39,386 bases of DNA from a virus (Duplodnaviria > Heunggongvirae > Uroviricota > Caudoviricetes), in IMG/VR virus record IMGVR_UViG_642979322_000008. One strand, written 5' to 3'. The notes beneath the pieces are model-generated. The model was not told the origin of the DNA and searched no databases. It saw nothing but the letters and a program-made list of their open reading frames with translations. This document shows positions 1 to 39,386 of the stretch, in pieces. The first letter of the stretch is position 1. Every line of letters starts with the position of its first letter. Position numbers and translations under genes: made by a program.

Positions 1-531
1 CTAACCCGCTTTAGATTCTACCGGATTTGATTGCCTACTTGTCTCGGTTTTTTCCAAAATCTCTCTGACGCAATCGTCTGGCATATCTACAATCATCAAC
101 GCAGCCAGGCGCTTCCTGCCTTCTAGTTGTAATAAATCCTGGTTTTCTTTATCCAGCAGTGTCAGAACCGTCTCTACACCTTTGCGAGCAAGGAGATTGG
201 TTAACTGTTCTCGTTCGTCTTTCGTAAGGAATGAAAGCATCTGTGTAAGTTGATCTCCCTTATCACCAGAACAACCAAAATTACCACAAATACCAACATC
301 GTTTGGTGATTCACCCTTGCCCTCTTTAAGCCACTCAAGACTAACTCCTTCACTTTCAGAAATTCGTATAAGGATACTTTCTCTGGGGGCTGGTTGTGTT
401 TGTCCTCCCTTGAAATAGCTGTTTAATGTGTTGATATTGATTCCCCACGCTCTGGCAGCTGCACTTCTTGAAGGGTAGCGCTTTGTAAGCATTCCAATAC
501 GTTCAATAACAGGTTCTTTTCCCTGCGACAT
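1..531 (-). CDS. c: Mu-type repressor (c-like); C-terminus runs off the window start
   Basis: Leftward ORF divergent from ner, no stop within window; start chosen at ATG 531-529 preceded by GAGGTA (alternative in-frame ATG at 606); position and composition match Mu repressor layout. Confidence 0.65.
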   Translation of the reverse strand: MSQGKEPVIERIGMLTKRYPSRSAAARAWGININTLNSYFKGGQTQPAPRESILIRISESEGVSLEWLKEGKGESPNDVGICGNFGCSGDKGDQLTQMLSFLTKDEREQLTNLLARKGVETVLTLLDKENQDLLQLEGRKRLAALMIVDMPDDCVREILEKTETSRQSNPVESKAG

Positions 532-971: not shown

Positions 972-3062
972 ATGTATGTCATTGCAAAAGAACTGATTGG
1001 CGCGCCCGGAATGCCTGCTACAACAAAAGGTATTCGCCAGGCATTACAACGTTACGTACAAGGGAAAAGCTGTTGTTCCCGTCGTCGCTCAGGCTCTAAA
1101 GCAACTGAATACAGCATCGACTGTTTACCTGAAGTGACGCAGCAGGCATTACGTGAACGTTATGCCCTGCAACTGATGACGCAAAAAGCCGATGAATCAC
1201 CGGCTCCGGTGGTGACAAAGGCCAGACGCTCATCTGACGTGGTTGATGCGGTGGAGGCATATCGCGGATCACCACAACTGATGGTCGAACGCCTCAATGC
1301 CCTGACTGAAAACCAGCGCCAGGTGGCTGATGCACGAATCGCGATCGTCAGCGAAGTGATGAAAGTCGCGCAACAACCCGGTTTCAGCTGCGCGAAGGCT
1401 ATCCGGTTTATCGTTGACAACCTGGCACGTTCACAGCTGGACGAGCGCATTGTGGCAATGGTTGAGACGGCGAACGCCAAAAAGGGAAACAGCCGTGCGT
1501 TGAGTGAAATCACGCTGAAGCGATGGATTGCGGCCTTTAACAAGGCACAGAACGCCGCTGAACGCCTGCTTTTACTGGCACCGGGTAAACGCCAGGAAAT
1601 AAAAGCCGAAGATATTAACTGGCTGCCCGAATTTCTGGCGCAGTATCGCCAGTCAAACGGCCGACCAATGACCGAGGCTTACGAGGATTTTGTCGCTGAA
1701 TGGCAGCACCGGCACGCTGATGAGCCTTATATGCTCGATATCATGCCGTCTTATGACACCATTCGCCGCGCAATGAAGAAACTGCCGGAAGTGGTGAAAC
1801 AAAAAGGCCGGGTGACCGGCAGTGAATACCGCCAGCTTGAGGGATTCACGCGCCGCGACTGGTCCAGAATGCCGGTGAATTATGTCTGGATTGGTGACGG
1901 TCACGGCATGAAGCTGAAATGCGCACACCCGGTTCACGGTCGGCCATTTGCACCGGAAGTGACCTTTGTTATCGACGGTGGCACGCGCTTTGTGGTGGGC
2001 TGGAGCCTTGACCTGGCTGAAAATGTTTTCGCCGTAGCCGGTGCCATACAGCACGGCATTCGCCATCACGGCAAACCGTTTCTGTATTACTCGGATAACG
2101 GCTCCGGGGAAACCGCCGACATCCTGGATAAGGAGGTTGTGGGGATACTGCCGCGACTGGGGATTAATCACCCGACCGGGATTGCCGGTAATCCGCAGGG
2201 ACGAGGCATTATCGAACGGCTTAACCGCACATTACCGATGCGCATAGCCCGTAAATACCGCACCTATTTCGGGAAAGGTGCAGATCGCGAGACGTTACGC
2301 AAAACCAACCGCGATTTACGCTCGGCATTTACTGCCCTGCAACAGGGCAAACGGCTGAACGCCCGGCAGCAGTCAGCGATGCGTGATTTACCGTCCTGGT
2401 CTGAACTGATTGATGCCATTCGTGATGGTGTTGAGTGGTACAACAACCGGCCGCACGATGAATTACCGGTGAAGCCGAACGGCAAGCATTACAGCCCGGC
2501 GGAGTTCAGAAAAAAACGCCTGGCGGAAGAGGACACGGAAATTGAATGGCTGTCCGATGTGGAATTGCGGGACATGTTCCGGCCGATGGTGGAACGCCCT
2601 GTAAGACGCTGTGAAATACGCTGGCTGAATAATATTTACTACGCGCCCGAGCTGCGTGATGAGCATGGCCGCAAGGTGCTTATCAGCTATGACATTCATG
2701 ATGCCGAACGAATTACCGTACGTCGCCTGGATGGCAGCGTGATTTGCGAGGCGGTATGGGACGGTAATAAACGCGAAGCCTTCCCGGTTAGCGCGGAATA
2801 CTACAAACAGCAGCAACGCCTTAAAGGCATGCGTAAACGCGCAGAGGAAAAAATCCGTGATGCCGAGGATGAGGTTGTCAACGTGCTGGAGCACAAGCCG
2901 CAGGAGCCCTGGCTGGAAAACATCTATCGCCCGGTAGGTAATACGGTGGCCGTTCAGCAACCTGCCATTGATGATGAGCCTGATGAAGAATACGAGCGCA
3001 ATTTCCAGCGGGGATTGCAGTTGCTCGAAGCGAAATTAAAAGAAAATGACCCGCTGGCCTGA
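972..3062 (+). CDS. A: Mu-type DDE transposase A
   Basis: 696-aa ORF immediately after ner; size and position match MuA (663 aa); family assignment by recalled similarity. Confidence 0.88.
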   Translation: MYVIAKELIGAPGMPATTKGIRQALQRYVQGKSCCSRRRSGSKATEYSIDCLPEVTQQALRERYALQLMTQKADESPAPVVTKARRSSDVVDAVEAYRGSPQLMVERLNALTENQRQVADARIAIVSEVMKVAQQPGFSCAKAIRFIVDNLARSQLDERIVAMVETANAKKGNSRALSEITLKRWIAAFNKAQNAAERLLLLAPGKRQEIKAEDINWLPEFLAQYRQSNGRPMTEAYEDFVAEWQHRHADEPYMLDIMPSYDTIRRAMKKLPEVVKQKGRVTGSEYRQLEGFTRRDWSRMPVNYVWIGDGHGMKLKCAHPVHGRPFAPEVTFVIDGGTRFVVGWSLDLAENVFAVAGAIQHGIRHHGKPFLYYSDNGSGETADILDKEVVGILPRLGINHPTGIAGNPQGRGIIERLNRTLPMRIARKYRTYFGKGADRETLRKTNRDLRSAFTALQQGKRLNARQQSAMRDLPSWSELIDAIRDGVEWYNNRPHDELPVKPNGKHYSPAEFRKKRLAEEDTEIEWLSDVELRDMFRPMVERPVRRCEIRWLNNIYYAPELRDEHGRKVLISYDIHDAERITVRRLDGSVICEAVWDGNKREAFPVSAEYYKQQQRLKGMRKRAEEKIRDAEDEVVNVLEHKPQEPWLENIYRPVGNTVAVQQPAIDDEPDEEYERNFQRGLQLLEAKLKENDPLA

Positions 3063-3132
3063 AATAAAAAATAACCCGAGCGGCGACTCAGGTTATTTGA
3101 TTAAACAAGGTATCAAATGAGAGGTTAATAAT

Positions 3133-4301: not shown

Positions 4302-4556
4302 ATGAATATGCAATCCTGCGGTAACAAAATGAATTTATTCGACTCCCTGAACAGCGCGCGCCGTCTGACCGAACTTGCCGGTGCGGTACTGGAACGCAGT
4401 AAGCGCTACCCACAACGTTTTGCACTGAAAACCACGCCGCCGGTAGGCAACGTGCAGGGAACCGGTGAAATTGAAATCACCATACAGACCAACGGCCTGC
4501 GCCGCCGTGTGAAGGCCACCCGCATCAGCGGCTGCACGGTTTACTGGGAGGTGTGA
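4302..4556 (+). CDS. hypothetical early protein
   Basis: ORF with GAGGTG before ATG at 4302 (track start 4290). Confidence 0.45.
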   Translation: MNMQSCGNKMNLFDSLNSARRLTELAGAVLERSKRYPQRFALKTTPPVGNVQGTGEIEITIQTNGLRRRVKATRISGCTVYWEV

Positions 4557-19314: not shown

Positions 19315-20261
19315 TGCCTACCCCGATTACACCGGCGATGATCACAGCCCTGATGACGGGCTACCGTTCTGATTTTCAGGCCGGGATGTCCATGGCCCCG
19401 TCGCAGTATAAAAAAATTGCGATGACCGTGCCCTCCACATCGAAATCCAACACCTACGGCTGGCTGGGGCAGTTCCCGCAGTTCCGTGAGTGGATCGGCT
19501 CCCGCGTCATCGAGAAGATGAAAGCCTATGGCTATGCCATCGTGAACAAAACTTTTGAAGGCACTGTCGCCATTAGCCGCGATGACTTCGAAGACGACAA
19601 CCTCGGTATTTATTCCCCGTTGTTCCAGGAGATGGGGCGCGCTGCGGCGGTACAACCGGATGAGCTGGTCTTTGCTGCCCTGCGTGACGGGATCAGTGCG
19701 GCCTGCTATGACGGTCAGAACTTCTTTGATACCGAACATCCGGTTTACCCCAAAGTGGATGGCTCCGGGGATGCGCAGATGGTCAGCAATATGTTTGTGG
19801 CAAAAACCGGCTCTGTCGGCGCACAGGCTGATTACAGCGGTCCGGCCTGGTATCTGCTTGACTGCTCCCGCGCGGTAAAACCGCTGATTTATCAGGATCG
19901 CCGTAAGGCTGAACTGGTTGCCCAGACCAAAGTCGATGAAGGTCGCGCATTCACCGATAACGAATTTGTGTTTGGTGCATCCGCCCGTCGCAATGTGGGC
20001 TACGGCTTCTGGCAGATGGCCTACATGATGCAGTCACCGCTGACGCTGGATGCACTGTGGCACGGCTGGTCAGCCATGCGCGAATTTACCGCTGACGGTG
20101 GCCGCAAACTCGGCATTAAACCCACCCATATTGTTGTCCCCACCTCGCTGGAAAAACAGGCGGTGCAGCTGCTGGAGCGTGAACTGTTCGCAGACGGAAA
20201 CGCAACCGTCTCTAACGAGATGAAGGGTAAGCTGGAGCTGGTTGTCGCGGATTATCTGTAA
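19314..20261 (+). CDS. major head subunit, Mu T-like
   Basis: 315-aa ORF, start overlapping protease stop. Confidence 0.8.
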   Translation: MPTPITPAMITALMTGYRSDFQAGMSMAPSQYKKIAMTVPSTSKSNTYGWLGQFPQFREWIGSRVIEKMKAYGYAIVNKTFEGTVAISRDDFEDDNLGIYSPLFQEMGRAAAVQPDELVFAALRDGISAACYDGQNFFDTEHPVYPKVDGSGDAQMVSNMFVAKTGSVGAQADYSGPAWYLLDCSRAVKPLIYQDRRKAELVAQTKVDEGRAFTDNEFVFGASARRNVGYGFWQMAYMMQSPLTLDALWHGWSAMREFTADGGRKLGIKPTHIVVPTSLEKQAVQLLERELFADGNATVSNEMKGKLELVVADYL

Positions 20262-20304: not shown

Positions 20305-20733
20305 ATGAATGAACATCACACTGTGGCAGCAACAGATGATTCAGGTCTTCAGGTCAGTGGTGACAATTCTGTCACGGTGCTGGCAGAAGTGCGTTGCAGT
20401 CGTTCGGCGTTTCGTCGTGCGGGGTTCCTGTTCACGCGTGGACGTCAGCAGGTTGAGGTCACCCCGGAGCAGCTTGCCCGACTGGAGGAGGAGCCATGCC
20501 TCACTGTGCGAATACTACAGACGTCTGCTGATGATGCGGGGAGCGTGGCGGGTGTGGTTCATGCAGTGGCCGGTACAGATTTAGCCGAAGCCGAAGCCGA
20601 AGCCGAAGCCGAAGCCGAAGCCGAAGCCGAAGCCGAAGCCGAAGCCGAAGCCGAAGCCGAAGCCGAAGCCGAAGCCGGACAGGATGCTCCCCGGAAAAAG
20701 ACCGGTAACAAAGCGGAACAGGCCCGTGCATGA
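20305..20733 (+). CDS. small head-region protein with (Ala-Glu)15 tract
   Basis: 142-aa ORF with GGAGG RBS; contains in-frame (GCCGAA)15. Confidence 0.55.
   Translation: MNEHHTVAATDDSGLQVSGDNSVTVLAEVRCSRSAFRRAGFLFTRGRQQVEVTPEQLARLEEEPCLTVRILQTSADDAGSVAGVVHAVAGTDLAEAEAEAEAEAEAEAEAEAEAEAEAEAEAEAGQDAPRKKTGNKAEQARA
20584..20673 (+). repeat. perfect hexanucleotide tandem repeat (GCCGAA)x15
   Basis: Seen directly: 15 uninterrupted GCCGAA units followed by GCCGGA. Confidence 0.95.
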
Positions 20734-34261: not shown

Positions 34262-36301
34262 ATGACGTCCAAATGGGTTCAACTATCATCAATGCCCGGA
34301 AACTTTACTGTTAAAGTTTCCGGTGGTACAGCGGCATTTCTTGAGGCTCCCTTTCCTCCGGCCGAAACAAAAGGAGGAATGACATTTGCTGACTGTCTCA
34401 TCAGTTTTAATACACGGGATTGCCTGTGGGTAAGGCCAGTATCCGGTGATCCGAGTGTGGAAATTACCGGAGCGGGTATTGGTGCGGTCATTCCGTTAAG
34501 TGCTGATGTTGCCGGTACTGCTGAACCGTCAGACTGGGATAATGCTGAAACACATACCCGTCCGTCAGGAAATGAAACTGCTTCCAGCTCCCCTTCCTGG
34601 TATTACGTGGTGGTTCTTGCTGGTCAGTCAAACGGTATGGCTTACGGTGAAGGTCTGCCACTGCCGGAGACATATGACCGCCCCGAACCGCGTATTATGC
34701 AGTTAGCCCGTCGCAGTACAGTCACGCCGGGAGGTAAAGCCTGTCAGTATAACGACATCATTCTGGCCGACCACTGTCTGCATGATGTGCAGGATATGAG
34801 TGGAAAAAATCACCCGAAAGCGGATGTGGCTAAAGGGCAATATGGCACCGTGGGTCAGGGGCTTCACATTGCCAAAAAACTGCTGCCGTTTATTCCGGCA
34901 GATGCGGGGATTCTGCTGGTTCCCTGCTGCCGTGGTGGTTCTGCATTCACGGCGGGTGCTGACGGCACGTACAGTGACAGCACGGGTGCTTCAGAGGACT
35001 CAGCCCGCTGGGGTGTGGATAAGCCGCTGTATAAGGACTTAATCAGCCGGACAAAAGCGGCACTGGCGAAGAACCCGAAAAACCGCCTGCTTGCTGTGGT
35101 GTGGATGCAGGGCGAGTTTGATATTGATGCGAAGCCGACGGAGCATTCCGCGCTGTTTCTGGCGATGGTGGAAAAATTCCGCGCAGACCTGGCTGAACAG
35201 GCGGAACAGTGTACCGGTGGCAGTGCTGCTGGCGTTCCGTGGATTTGTGGCGATACCACGTATTTCTGGAAACAGAAAAATGAACCGGCATACCAGGCAA
35301 TCTATGGCGGCTACAAAAACAAAACAGATAAAAACATTCATTTCGTTCCATTAATGACAGATGAAAATGACGCGAATGTACCCACCAACAATCCGGCAGA
35401 AGACCCGGATATTGAATCCATTGGTTATTACGGCTCAACGTGGCGTAACAGTGCCGCCACCTGGACATCTGCGGACCGGGCCAGCCATTTCAGTTCATGG
35501 GCACGTCGTGGGATTATTTCCGACCGTCTGGCCACGGCAGTTCTGACTCATGCGGGGCGAACCACAGTAAAAGCCGATGTTCCATCTTCTGAAACTGAAG
35601 CACCAGTGCCGTCACCTTCAGAAACTGAAGCAGTAACCACAACACTGCTGTCTTATCGTGTCAGTGAGTCAGAAGGAAATCTGAAAGCCCAGGGCTGGGA
35701 GCCGGCTGGCGGTAAAGCTGAAATTATCAGTGATGCAGGAGGCACAGGTGGTAAGGCAATGAAACTGACCAAGGAAACAGGTAAATCATCCTGGTATCTG
35801 GATCATGATGCCGGTACTGGTGCTGAACTGCTGAAAAATGGTGGTTTAATCAGTTGTCGTTTTAAAGTACCTGGCGACCTGGTGGCAAACCAGTATGTCA
35901 TGGGGCTTTACTGGCCGGTTTCCTCTCTGCCGCAGGGTGTCACCCTGACAGGGGATGCAGGGAATAATCTGCTGGCATCGTTCTACATCCAGACAGACGC
36001 AAAAGACCTGAATGTGATGTACCACAATGCAAAAGTGGCAACAAATAACCAGAAACTGGGAACCTTTGGTGCATTTGATAATGAATGGCATACGCTGGCC
36101 TTCCGTTTTGCAGGAAATAACAGCCTTCAGGTTATTCCGGTTATTGATGGTCAGGATGGTGCCGCGTTTACCCTGACGCAGTCACCAGTAGGAACTTTCC
36201 CGGTGGACAAACTCCGCGTAACGGATATCACAAAAAATGCAACTTACCCGGTGCTGATTGACAGCATTGTGGTGGAAGTGAAAAAAGCGGTAACAGAATA
36301 A
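34262..36301 (+). CDS. SGNH/SASA-family carbohydrate O-acetylesterase-like protein (prophage NanS-p-like) with additional N- and C-terminal domains
   Basis: 679 aa; GQSN motif (VVVLAGQSNGMAYGEG) typical of sialate O-acetylesterase-type SGNH hydrolases; Ser/Thr/Pro/Glu linker (SETEAPVPSPSETEA) before a C-terminal beta-rich domain. Confidence 0.55.
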   Translation: MTSKWVQLSSMPGNFTVKVSGGTAAFLEAPFPPAETKGGMTFADCLISFNTRDCLWVRPVSGDPSVEITGAGIGAVIPLSADVAGTAEPSDWDNAETHTRPSGNETASSSPSWYYVVVLAGQSNGMAYGEGLPLPETYDRPEPRIMQLARRSTVTPGGKACQYNDIILADHCLHDVQDMSGKNHPKADVAKGQYGTVGQGLHIAKKLLPFIPADAGILLVPCCRGGSAFTAGADGTYSDSTGASEDSARWGVDKPLYKDLISRTKAALAKNPKNRLLAVVWMQGEFDIDAKPTEHSALFLAMVEKFRADLAEQAEQCTGGSAAGVPWICGDTTYFWKQKNEPAYQAIYGGYKNKTDKNIHFVPLMTDENDANVPTNNPAEDPDIESIGYYGSTWRNSAATWTSADRASHFSSWARRGIISDRLATAVLTHAGRTTVKADVPSSETEAPVPSPSETEAVTTTLLSYRVSESEGNLKAQGWEPAGGKAEIISDAGGTGGKAMKLTKETGKSSWYLDHDAGTGAELLKNGGLISCRFKVPGDLVANQYVMGLYWPVSSLPQGVTLTGDAGNNLLASFYIQTDAKDLNVMYHNAKVATNNQKLGTFGAFDNEWHTLAFRFAGNNSLQVIPVIDGQDGAAFTLTQSPVGTFPVDKLRVTDITKNATYPVLIDSIVVEVKKAVTE

Positions 36302-37528: not shown

Positions 37529-37729
37529 ATGTATCGAAACATACGGTGCCGACACTGCAATAAGCTACTGGCACGGGCCAGTTTCAGTTATCTGGAAGTA
37601 AAATGTCCGCGCTGTAAAACCCTCAATCAAATCACATCTCCGAGCGCCACAGAGCACCCCACATACACAAGGAAATCCTGTCGTGGGGAACAGAAAGCAA
37701 GTCACATCCCGAATCATCAGCACGCCTGA
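37529..37729 (+). CDS. com: Com zinc-finger translational activator of mom
   Basis: [17 protein letters not shown]...EVKCPRCK matches Mu Com Cys4 pattern (IRCKNCNKLL...EIRCPRCK) as recalled; overlaps the mom start. Confidence 0.8.
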
Positions 37730-38420
37730 ACTTATTCGCTATAACGACAATATCGTTGGTTATGGCTCCCGTGAGTTGCGGGTTGAGACAATAAGTTGCT
37801 GGCTGGCCAGACTGGTCATCGTCAATAAACATTACAGCCACCGTTTCGTAAATAACTCCTACCTTCATCTGGGCATATTTTCAGAACGGGAACTTGTTGG
37901 CGTAATGCAATGGGGTTACGCCCTTAACCCAAACAGTGGTGCACGCGTCGTAACGGGTACGCAGAACCGAGAATATATGGAGCTTAACCGGCTATGGCTG
38001 CATGACTGTATGCCGAGAAACTCCGAATCAAGGGCAATCAGTTACGCGCTCAAGCTAATCAGGCAGCTTTATCCGCAGGTACAGTGGGTTCAGTCGTTTG
38101 CAGATGAGCGTTGTGGCTGTCTTGGTGTCGTGTATCAGGCAAGCAATTTTGATTATGTAGGCAGCCATGAATCAATATTCTATGAACTTGATGGCGAGTG
38201 GTATCACGAGATTTGCAGGAATGCCATTAAACGAGGCGGACAACGAGGTGAACATCTGAGGGCTAATATTGACAGAGCCAGTGTTCATAAGTTCCGACAG
38301 TTTCGTTACATCCGGTTTCTGAACAAGAGGGCCAGAAAACGCCTCAACACAAAGCTATTCAAAGTCCAGCCTTACCCAAAACCACAAACAGTTAAAACTG
38401 GTTTGAAAGAGAGTGAATGA
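37683..38420 (+). CDS. mom: Mom DNA-modification enzyme (adenine N6-carbamoylmethylation)
   Basis: 245-aa ORF directly after and overlapping com, last gene before the prophage right end; start codon uncertain. Confidence 0.8.
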
Positions 38421-38439
38421 GCGCTTAAAAACTCATTCT

Positions 38440-38550
38440 AAAACTCAAAAGAAAAGCGCCGATTTAGTATCAAATAAGTTGCGTATCGGCGTTTTTCAGC
38501 GGTATCAAATGAAATGCAAATCGGTATCAAAAAAATCGCCGCGCTATACA
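38440..38550. repeat. prophage right end (attR) with candidate transposase-binding repeats
   Basis: Three GTATCAAA-type repeats (about 38467, 38502, 38524); element ends ...CTATACA, whose complement reads 5'-TGTAT like the Mu left-end start. Confidence 0.55.
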
Positions 38551-39386
38551 CGCATCGTTCCATTCAGCAGCGCGATATCTGCATGGTGTTTCAGTCATAC
38601 GCTCTGTTCCCGCATATGTCGCTGGGCGAAAACGTCGGCTACGGGTTAAAGATGCTCGGCGTGTCGCGTAGCGAAGTAAAGCAGCGGGTGAAAGAGGCGC
38701 TGGCAATGGTGGATCTGGAAGGGTTCGAGGACCGCTATGTCGACCAGATTTCCGGTGGTCAGCAACAGCGCGTGGCGCTGGCCCGCGCGTTGATCCTCAA
38801 ACCAAAGGTGCTGCTGTTTGATGAGCCGTTAAGTAACCTCGATGCCAACCTGCGCCGCAGCATGCGCGATAAGATCCGCGAGCTGCAAAAGCAGTTTAAT
38901 ATCACGTCGCTCTACGTGACTCACGATCAAAGTGAGGCCTTCGCGGTTTCCGACACTGTGCTGGTGATGAATAAAGGTCACATCATGCAGATTGGCTCAC
39001 CGCAGGATCTCTATCGTCAGCCAGCCTCCCGCTTTATGGCAAGTTTTATGGGCGACGCCAACCTGTTCCCGGCGAACTTTAGCGAAGAGTATGTCGATAT
39101 CTACGGTTATCGCCTGCCGCGCGCGGCGCATTTCCCGGTGCAAGGTAGCGGCACCGTCGGCATTCGCCCGGAAGCCATCACCTTAAGCAATCACGGCGAA
39201 GAGAGTCAGCGTTGTGTTATTCGCCATGTCGCCTACATGGGGCCGCAGTACGAAGTGACCGTAGAGTGGCATGGACAGGAGATTTTATTACAAGTAAACG
39301 CCACCCGTTTACAGCCCGATATTGGTGAGCACTATTACCTCGAAATCCATCCTTACGGGATGTTTGTTTTAGCGGATGCGGCATAA
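38551..39386 (+). pseudogene. fbpC: host ABC-transporter ATP-binding protein gene (ferric-uptake FbpC/AfuC-like), 5' part missing due to prophage insertion
   Basis: Frame reads ...[23 protein letters not shown] (Q-loop), LSGGQQQRV signature, Walker B LLFDEP, H-loop VTHDQ and C-terminal regulatory domain; Walker A absent, so the N-terminal ~60 codons lie elsewhere. Gene name from recalled similarity only. Confidence 0.6.

Follow-up and report, generated by a model that had tools for sequence, protein, structure and literature searches.

The window, by which we mean the whole stretch of 39,386 nucleotides analysed here, very probably comprises a Sp18-type, Mu-like transposable prophage (positions 1-38548) followed by the distal part of afuC (fbpC in the PGAP annotation; 38549-39386) of Escherichia coli O157:H7 (Table 1). 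The leftmost 250 bp of the prophage, with the left terminus and the end repeats L1-L3, lie outside the window, as do the left junction and the 5' 213 nt of afuC. Window base 1 corresponds to position 4466 of the locus record L001, at the stop codon of the gene in the repressor position. The 176-aa product of this gene had no match in Pfam; from its position and its orientation, which is divergent to the ner-like gene as in Mu, it would be the repressor.

Near the left end, the gene for a DDE transposase with a Mu-type C-terminal domain adjoins that for a MuB-type AAA+ ATPase. The Mu-like late region, as annotated by RefSeq in the sister copies, carries com and mom at its right end, where mom is the last phage gene and is also recognised by Pfam. 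The sister copies possess a complete Mu-like set of genes, including Gam, Mor, lysis genes, a DUF935 portal, a protease and a gpT head protein, and further carry sheath and tube genes, baseplate genes, an invertible tail-fibre segment with its recombinase (invertase), Com and Mom. The transposase, B, Mom and tail proteins of the window have RefSeq accessions identical to those of sister Sp18-type copies. When the right 2.2 kb was searched by megablast against 50,697 phage records, only two Stx phages with inserted Sp18-like elements were returned (LC727881 and LC727895), and no isolated phage genome in this collection matched it closely.

Table 1. Features of the prophage, its right end and the adjoining host gene, in window coordinates unless a locus record is named.
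Feature	Position	Strand	Basis or remark
Repressor-position gene, c-like, 176 aa (WP_000077537.1)	1-531	-	RefSeq CDS, L001 4466-4996
Ner-like early regulator, 82 aa	722-970	+	Pfam HTH_35, E = 2.5e-19
Transposase A, 696 aa; DDE enzyme with Mu N-terminal DNA-binding domain and Mu-transpos_C domain	972-3062	+	Pfam Mu-transpos_C, 1.5e-17; HTH_Tnp_Mu_1, 1.9e-6
MuB-like AAA+ target-capture ATPase, 310 aa	3133-4065	+	Pfam Phage-MuB_C, 2.5e-25; AAA_22
com, translational activator of mom	37529-37729	+	RefSeq 'Com family DNA-binding transcriptional regulator', L009 430-630, converted to window coordinates
mom, DNA adenine modification	37683-38420	+	Pfam Mom, E = 4e-77; RefSeq 'protein mom'
R3, putative transposase-binding repeat TTTGATACT	38466-38474	-	75-83 bp from right terminus
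R2, putative repeat TTTGATACC	38501-38509	-	40-48 bp from right terminus
R1, putative repeat TTTGATACC	38523-38531	-	18-26 bp from right terminus; offset same as L1 at left
Chimeric ORF, 290 aa; ATG and 12 first codons of phage right-end DNA, fused in frame to afuC	38514-39386	+	Not a native gene
Right terminus, ...TATA-3'	38545-38548	+	Sequence identical up to 38548 and divergent beyond in 10 independent insertions
Right copy of the 4-bp target-site duplication CACG	38549-38552	+	Empty site in PA20 compared with left and right junctions
Left copy of the CACG duplication	L001 4212-4215, outside the window		Left junction
3' fragment of fbpC/afuC; codon 71 (duplicated copy), codons 72-348 and stop	38550-39386	+	RefSeq pseudogene 'missing N-terminus', record 4445508-4446344

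Several further features of the prophage were observed. A gene for a 679-aa, cargo-like protein (34262-36301, + strand) is located between the invertible tail-fibre region and com/mom, and its product contains a SASA (sialate O-acetylesterase-type) domain and DUF6645. This protein resembles the NanS-p esterases of Stx phages. Another DUF6645 gene is found in the lambdoid prophage that adjoins the insertion in locus record L006. ARAGORN predicted no tRNA in the window, and no Rfam family scored above threshold there. RefSeq annotates a 'tRNA-OTHER' in sister prophages (L005 21506-21586 and L007 19420-19500), between the head-morphogenesis and virion-morphogenesis genes.

A perfect tandem array of the hexanucleotide AGCCGA (15.8 copies, 20583-20677) lies inside the gene for an 'HI1506-related protein', the length of which varies among sister prophages (375, 387, 393 and 411 nt). 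The window is 6 bases longer than NZ_CP089270.1 within positions 1-38300, and this array is the likely place of the excess. The array thus looks like a slippage-prone coding repeat, and the window may stem from a different assembly closely related to NZ_CP089270.1.

The right junction and the target-site duplication

Genomes with an uninterrupted fbpC (~650) align to the window only from position 38549 onward, under the intact gene. The last phage base is 38548 (...GCGCTATA), and the prophage-host junction is 38548/38549. The segment from 38300 to 39386 is 100% identical in three complete O157:H7 genomes (M1300706002, 6535WT and 6535NalR). An earlier sequence-only reading of this DNA had placed the end of the prophage at about 38550. 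The junction it described is real, and the host alignment puts it within 2 bp of that place; the end that it quoted, ...GCGCTATACA, contains two host bases, and the true right terminus is ...TATA-3' rather than ...CA-3'. The same reading had the host frame resuming after the phage end, which agrees with what we found: from 38550 the translation THRSIQQ... exactly matches codons 71-348 of FbpC (348 aa) in O157:H7 genomes where the gene is uninterrupted.

The left junction was read in NZ_CP089270.1 and the empty site in strain PA20. At the left, host DNA ...GAAGATGTCACG is joined to phage DNA TGTAACCAGG (also read as TGTAACCAGGTGAATCATTTGATACC...), with ...GTCACG / TGTAACC at the boundary, and the right junction in the window reads ...CGCGCTATA / CACGCATCGT. 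The empty site in PA20 is GATGTCACGCATCG, which in the context of the intact fbpC reads ...GAAGATGTCACGCATCGT.... CACG is the only sequence present at both junctions of the afuC insertion. The 'CA' at 38549-38550 thus comes from the host, where it opens the duplicated CACG, and it mimics the terminal CA of Mu by coincidence. The sequence-only reading had predicted a 5-bp duplication, CGCAT, which is absent from the left junction; comparison of the empty site with both junctions leaves only the 4 bp of CACG duplicated.

Both junctions were also read for nine further independent insertions of the same phage, to exclude a peculiarity of the afuC site. All ten insertions are flanked by perfect 4-bp direct repeats that directly abut 5'-TGTA...TATA-3', with a variant left terminus in strain M3. 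The repeats are CACG in afuC (the window), CATC in a Stx2c phage, ATTA in dcuC, CGCA in a terB-like gene, TTCT in ydhR, ATAG in comR, CGCA in flgL, TTCG in citF, ATCA in tagO/vasI and TAAA in sorM (Sp18 of strain Sakai). A fifth base agreed upstream in only 3/10 insertions and downstream in 4/10, which is the chance expectation. Three empty sites were verified (afuC, dcuC and ydhR); those of dcuC and ydhR, rebuilt with one copy of the 4 bp, gave 100% full-length matches to other genomes. As a control, the same analysis of a genuine Mu in E. coli W returned TG...CA ends and a 5-bp duplication, GCCGC.

These junctions bear on two other placements of the right end. A canonical Mu-type end, with the phage finishing in ...TACA at 38550 and flanked by the 5-bp CGCAT, is extremely improbable. 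The region 38547-38550 does read ACA, in imitation of the conserved terminal CA of Mu, and the insertion in the Stx2c phage likewise has CA after CTATA, but the left junction ends in ...TCACG rather than CGCAT, the empty site shows the CA to be host sequence, and in the eight other insertions CTATA is followed by AT, CG, TT, AT, CG, TT, AT and TA. Since the bases following CTATA vary among the insertions, they belong to the target DNA and not to the phage. A 5-bp duplication, whether of CGCAT or of any other 5-mer, is ruled out by the empty site and the ten insertions.

It is barely credible, too, that the termini are TG...CA with a duplication of just 2 bp (CG). The arithmetic of such a duplication fits the afuC and Stx2c-phage insertions taken alone; it needs an invariant CA after CTATA, however, at a position that varies in 8/10 insertions, and it would make the distance of R1 from its terminus 2 bp greater than that of L1. 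The variable bases rule it out. L1 and R1 are equidistant (18-26) from their termini only with the right terminus at 38548, which provides independent support for that position.

A junction made by site-specific (integrase/att) integration, or by a chimeric assembly, has almost no chance of being the explanation. Nothing speaks for it except that lambdoid prophages are generally frequent in O157 genomes, while the same element is found at 10 or more sites whose 4-bp flanks differ, no integrase is present at either end, and Sp18 is not circularised (PMC2669165). A chimeric assembly is opposed by the identity of the junction in three complete genomes. The transpositional insertion of the phage is contradicted by none of the data.

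The flanking duplication is thus 4 bp rather than 5 or 6 in every insertion, and the termini are not 5'-TG...CA-3': the right end is ...TATA-3' in 10/10 insertions, and the left end begins with TG, or with TA in M3. The M3 element (the flgL insertion, L011) is a variant of ~97% identity whose left terminus is TATA instead of TGTA, which gives it TA...TA ends with a perfect CGCA duplication. In the reference annotation of Sp18 in Sakai (NC_002695.2, 5040971..5079729; L017/L018), the left boundary is placed 1 bp too far in (at GTAACC) and the right boundary 5 bp past TATA. The true Sakai unit is 5040970..5079724, flanked by TAAA.

According to a recent survey, Mu generates 5-bp and B3 6-bp duplications, and all Mu- and B3-like phages described before it have TG-CA ends, the exception being the Leptospira TA-TA prophages that it reports (PMC8705779). 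Our search found no statement of the Sp18 footprint, a 4-bp duplication or a TA terminus in the searchable literature. GenBank record LC727881 annotates a 4-bp duplication for its inserted Mu-like phage, without comment. The 4-bp duplication and the TA terminus are solid as sequence facts (10/10 insertions), but given this annotation they may not be truly undescribed. Relative to Mu, the 4-bp footprint and the TG...TA ends are a modest deviation.

End repeats, transposition proteins and related phages

The three repeats that had been noticed ahead of the right end were found again: TTTGATACY, the reverse complement of GTATCAAA, occurs there at three sites on the minus strand. The whole window contains 5 matches to TTTGATACY against 0.38 expected, and 0/100 shuffles reach 5. 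Three inverted copies of TTTGATACC/T are located at 18-26, 113-121 and 165-173 from the left terminus, so that multiple putative transposase sites occur in inverted orientation at both ends, at offsets of 18/113/165 on the left and 18/40/75 on the right. The left terminal site stands apart from the two further in, and the three right-end sites are packed together. In Mu, L1 is set apart from L2/L3 and R1-R3 are close together. The layout in the prophage resembles that of Mu, and by analogy with the L1-L3/R1-R3 sites the transposase may bind the TTTGATACC repeats. Two more exact copies of TTTGATACC are found inside the phage, at 3109-3117 (- strand) in the intergenic gap between A and B and at 19725-19733 (+ strand). 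They could be chance matches or internal transposase sites.

Transposase A shares 22% amino acid identity with MuA, and the B protein 48% with MuB. Compared by phmmer with PDB sequences, the transposase matched no MuA chain and only retroviral integrase cores, weakly (E about 1e-4), with the alignment extending across the ...DNGS...GNPQG..IER... motifs. Alignments to MuA and to integrase cores point to D309, D375 and E415 as the probable catalytic residues. The last two would be separated by ~40 residues, an integrase-like spacing. In MuA this D-to-E spacing is 56 residues (D336-E392). Among phages, the most similar transposases belong to Pseudomonas phage VW-6B (47%) and Mannheimia phage 3927AP2 (45%), followed by the D3112/DMS3 group at about 30%.

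Sp18 of Sakai and its relatives in Shiga-toxin-producing E. coli (STEC) share with the window prophage the ends, repeats, gene order, proteins, termini and 4-bp footprint. They differ in site (sorM in Sakai, afuC here) and by small indels, such as that in the AGCCGA repeat. Sp18, for which O157:H7 Sakai provided the original description, is reported to be intact, packaged and found at strain-specific sites (PMC2669165; PMC7430833; PMC10132054). Mu is similar in its overall plan, having c/ner followed by A and B at the left, com-mom at the right, an invertible tail-fibre segment, three transposase-site repeats per end and insertion sites that appear near-random. Unlike Mu, the prophage has a 4-bp rather than a 5-bp duplication, a right terminus in TA rather than CA, a divergent transposase and a repeat consensus, TTTGATACC, that is unrelated to Mu's. 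Neither the similarity of its A and B proteins to those of Mu nor the length of its duplication in the ten insertions fits membership in the genus Muvirus.

The transposable phages of Pseudomonas and Mannheimia (VW-6B, 3927AP2 and the D3112/DMS3 and B3 types) include the closest phage transposases, but they have other hosts and other late genes, and B3 is reported to produce 6-bp duplications, with TG-CA ends, whereas the duplication here is 4 bp and the ends are TG...TA (PMC8705779). That transposable phages can have non-canonical TA termini has a precedent in the Leptospira prophages. Both of their ends are TA, as are those of one E. coli variant (strain M3), and they have 6-bp duplications and B3/Tn552-type transposases, in contrast to the TG left end, TA right end and 4-bp duplication described here (PMC8705779).

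Insertion took place after nt 213 (codon 71/348) of afuC, through DDE transposition, and probably ran as follows. Transposase A would bind the three TTTGATACC repeats at each end (R1-R3 at the right), and the MuB-like ATPase would deliver the target DNA. Target phosphates 4 bp apart would then be attacked by the two 3'-OH ends, ...TACA-3' of the bottom strand at the left and ...TATA-3' of the top strand at the right, so that strand transfer would be staggered by 4 bp, and repair would duplicate CACG. The insertion parts Walker A from the rest of the ATPase. The phage may have arrived by infection or by intragenomic transposition.

The chances seem about even that the Sp18-type phages of STEC form a distinct lineage, and the first 4-bp group of transposable phages, which pairs a MuB-like ATPase with a divergent, integrase-like DDE transposase and accepts 4-bp joining and a TA 3' terminus. 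If true, this footprint contrasts with the published generalisation of 5 or 6 bp and TG-CA ends.

The interrupted afuC gene and the spread of the phage

The interrupted gene had been called fbpC-like, a name that agrees with PGAP ('ferric'), but its locus context identifies it as afuC of O-island 20 (PMC4546632). In the carrier the gene order is tauABCD, a response regulator, a MASE1 sensor kinase, a uhpC-like gene, the binding protein, the permease, fbpC and frmR-frmA, and in the intact locus of PA20 the full frmRAB follows fbpC. This places it in the AfuABC operon of EHEC OI-20, between tauABCD and frmRAB, in keeping with the published description of the locus (PMC4546632). As in other AfuABC/FbpABC-type importers, a binding protein, a permease and an ATPase with ABC_tran and TOBE_2 domains are encoded in one operon; here, however, the ATPase gene is split. 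AfuABC imports hexose and heptose phosphates (glucose-6-P, fructose-6-P and sedoheptulose-7-P), not iron, as established for the Actinobacillus and Citrobacter systems rather than for this EHEC copy. Transport requires all three components, and in the Citrobacter rodentium model the system plays a part in colonising the gut and in transmission (PMC4546632).

That the insertion splits an ABC ATPase gene, as the sequence-only reading had proposed, is borne out by the position of the missing 5' part, the Pfam coverage and the RefSeq annotation. The insertion follows nt 213, with Walker A (GPSGCGKT, residues 39-46) on one side and the Q-loop on the other, and ~38.8 kb separate the first 213 nt of afuC, beyond the far end of the prophage, from the remainder. 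The 3' fragment is 100% identical to intact fbpC and retains the Q-loop, signature motif, Walker B, H-loop and TOBE domain; it lacks Walker A. In Pfam, the window ORF covers only positions 52-136 of the ABC_tran profile, plus TOBE, compared with 2-136 for the intact protein, and the window copy therefore contains no complete nucleotide-binding domain (Walker A through H-loop) in one frame. RefSeq marks both halves of afuC as pseudogenes in three O157:H7 genomes.

It is very unlikely that the ORF at 38514-39386 represents a shorter but complete ABC ATPase gene that has a start of its own, in which case nothing would be disrupted. The in-frame ATG at 38514 does open a 290-aa ORF with matches to ABC_tran and TOBE_2, but its first 12 codons are phage end DNA that overlaps R1 and is common to phage copies at unrelated sites, the intact allele is 348 aa long in about 650 genomes, and the ORF lacks ABC_tran positions 1-51, including Walker A, and is a pseudogene in RefSeq. 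In intact alleles, the native start of afuC precedes the insertion point by 213 nt. With its start and 12 codons in phage DNA and Walker A missing, the ORF at 38514 was rejected as a native gene, and the sequence-only reading's split of the gene is not overturned by a start of its own near 38514.

Because the cut falls between Walker A and the Q-loop, the split AfuC ATPase is, judging from its lost domains, almost certainly dead, and AfuABC transport should be abolished in the carrier strains. Polar effects on other genes are unlikely, since the operon ends with afuC and a gap of 160 bp separates it from frmR.

The afuC junction is common to only 3/5426 complete E. coli genomes. Each of these has a single phage right end, which suggests one event in one lineage, and the three genomes may be one clone. 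The phage right end occurs in 232/5426 E. coli genomes, in up to 4 places per genome and under many different genes, twice on plasmids and often within other prophages. The same element is therefore present at many unrelated chromosomal sites, ten of which have been read at both junctions. This distribution, together with the Mu-type A, MuB-like ATPase, Ner-like and Com/Mom proteins, is in line with the suggestion of a Mu-like phage that inserts at random.

One right-end copy was located on an 88.9-kb plasmid of strain SMN152SH1 (H63, NZ_CP024617.1), others under tail and head genes of lambdoid prophages in several genomes (H34, H39, H40 and H57), and others again in the records of the two Stx-converting phages LC727881 and LC727895. 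As copies sit on a plasmid and inside other prophages, the Sp18-type element could hitch-hike on other mobile elements or inactivate them.

The junction is genuine but ordinary, and is already annotated in public genomes. The main point of the sequence-only reading, that a Mu-like phage has split an ABC ATPase gene, holds, and the details that it derived from Mu fail. The rules of Mu (a CA terminus and a 5-bp duplication) are unusable for delimiting Sp18-type prophages; here they misplaced the boundary by 2 bp and predicted the wrong duplication. One point has broader significance: transposition throughout the Sp18 family involves a 4-bp footprint and a right terminus in TA. A MuB-like partner and a distant transposase with a 4-bp stagger offer a useful comparison for the determinants of stagger length in DDE transpososomes. 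The afuC knockout in the three O157:H7 genomes would be a natural loss-of-function allele in a nutrient transporter linked to colonisation, and it was produced by an active transposable phage for which Stx phages and plasmids are targets as well.
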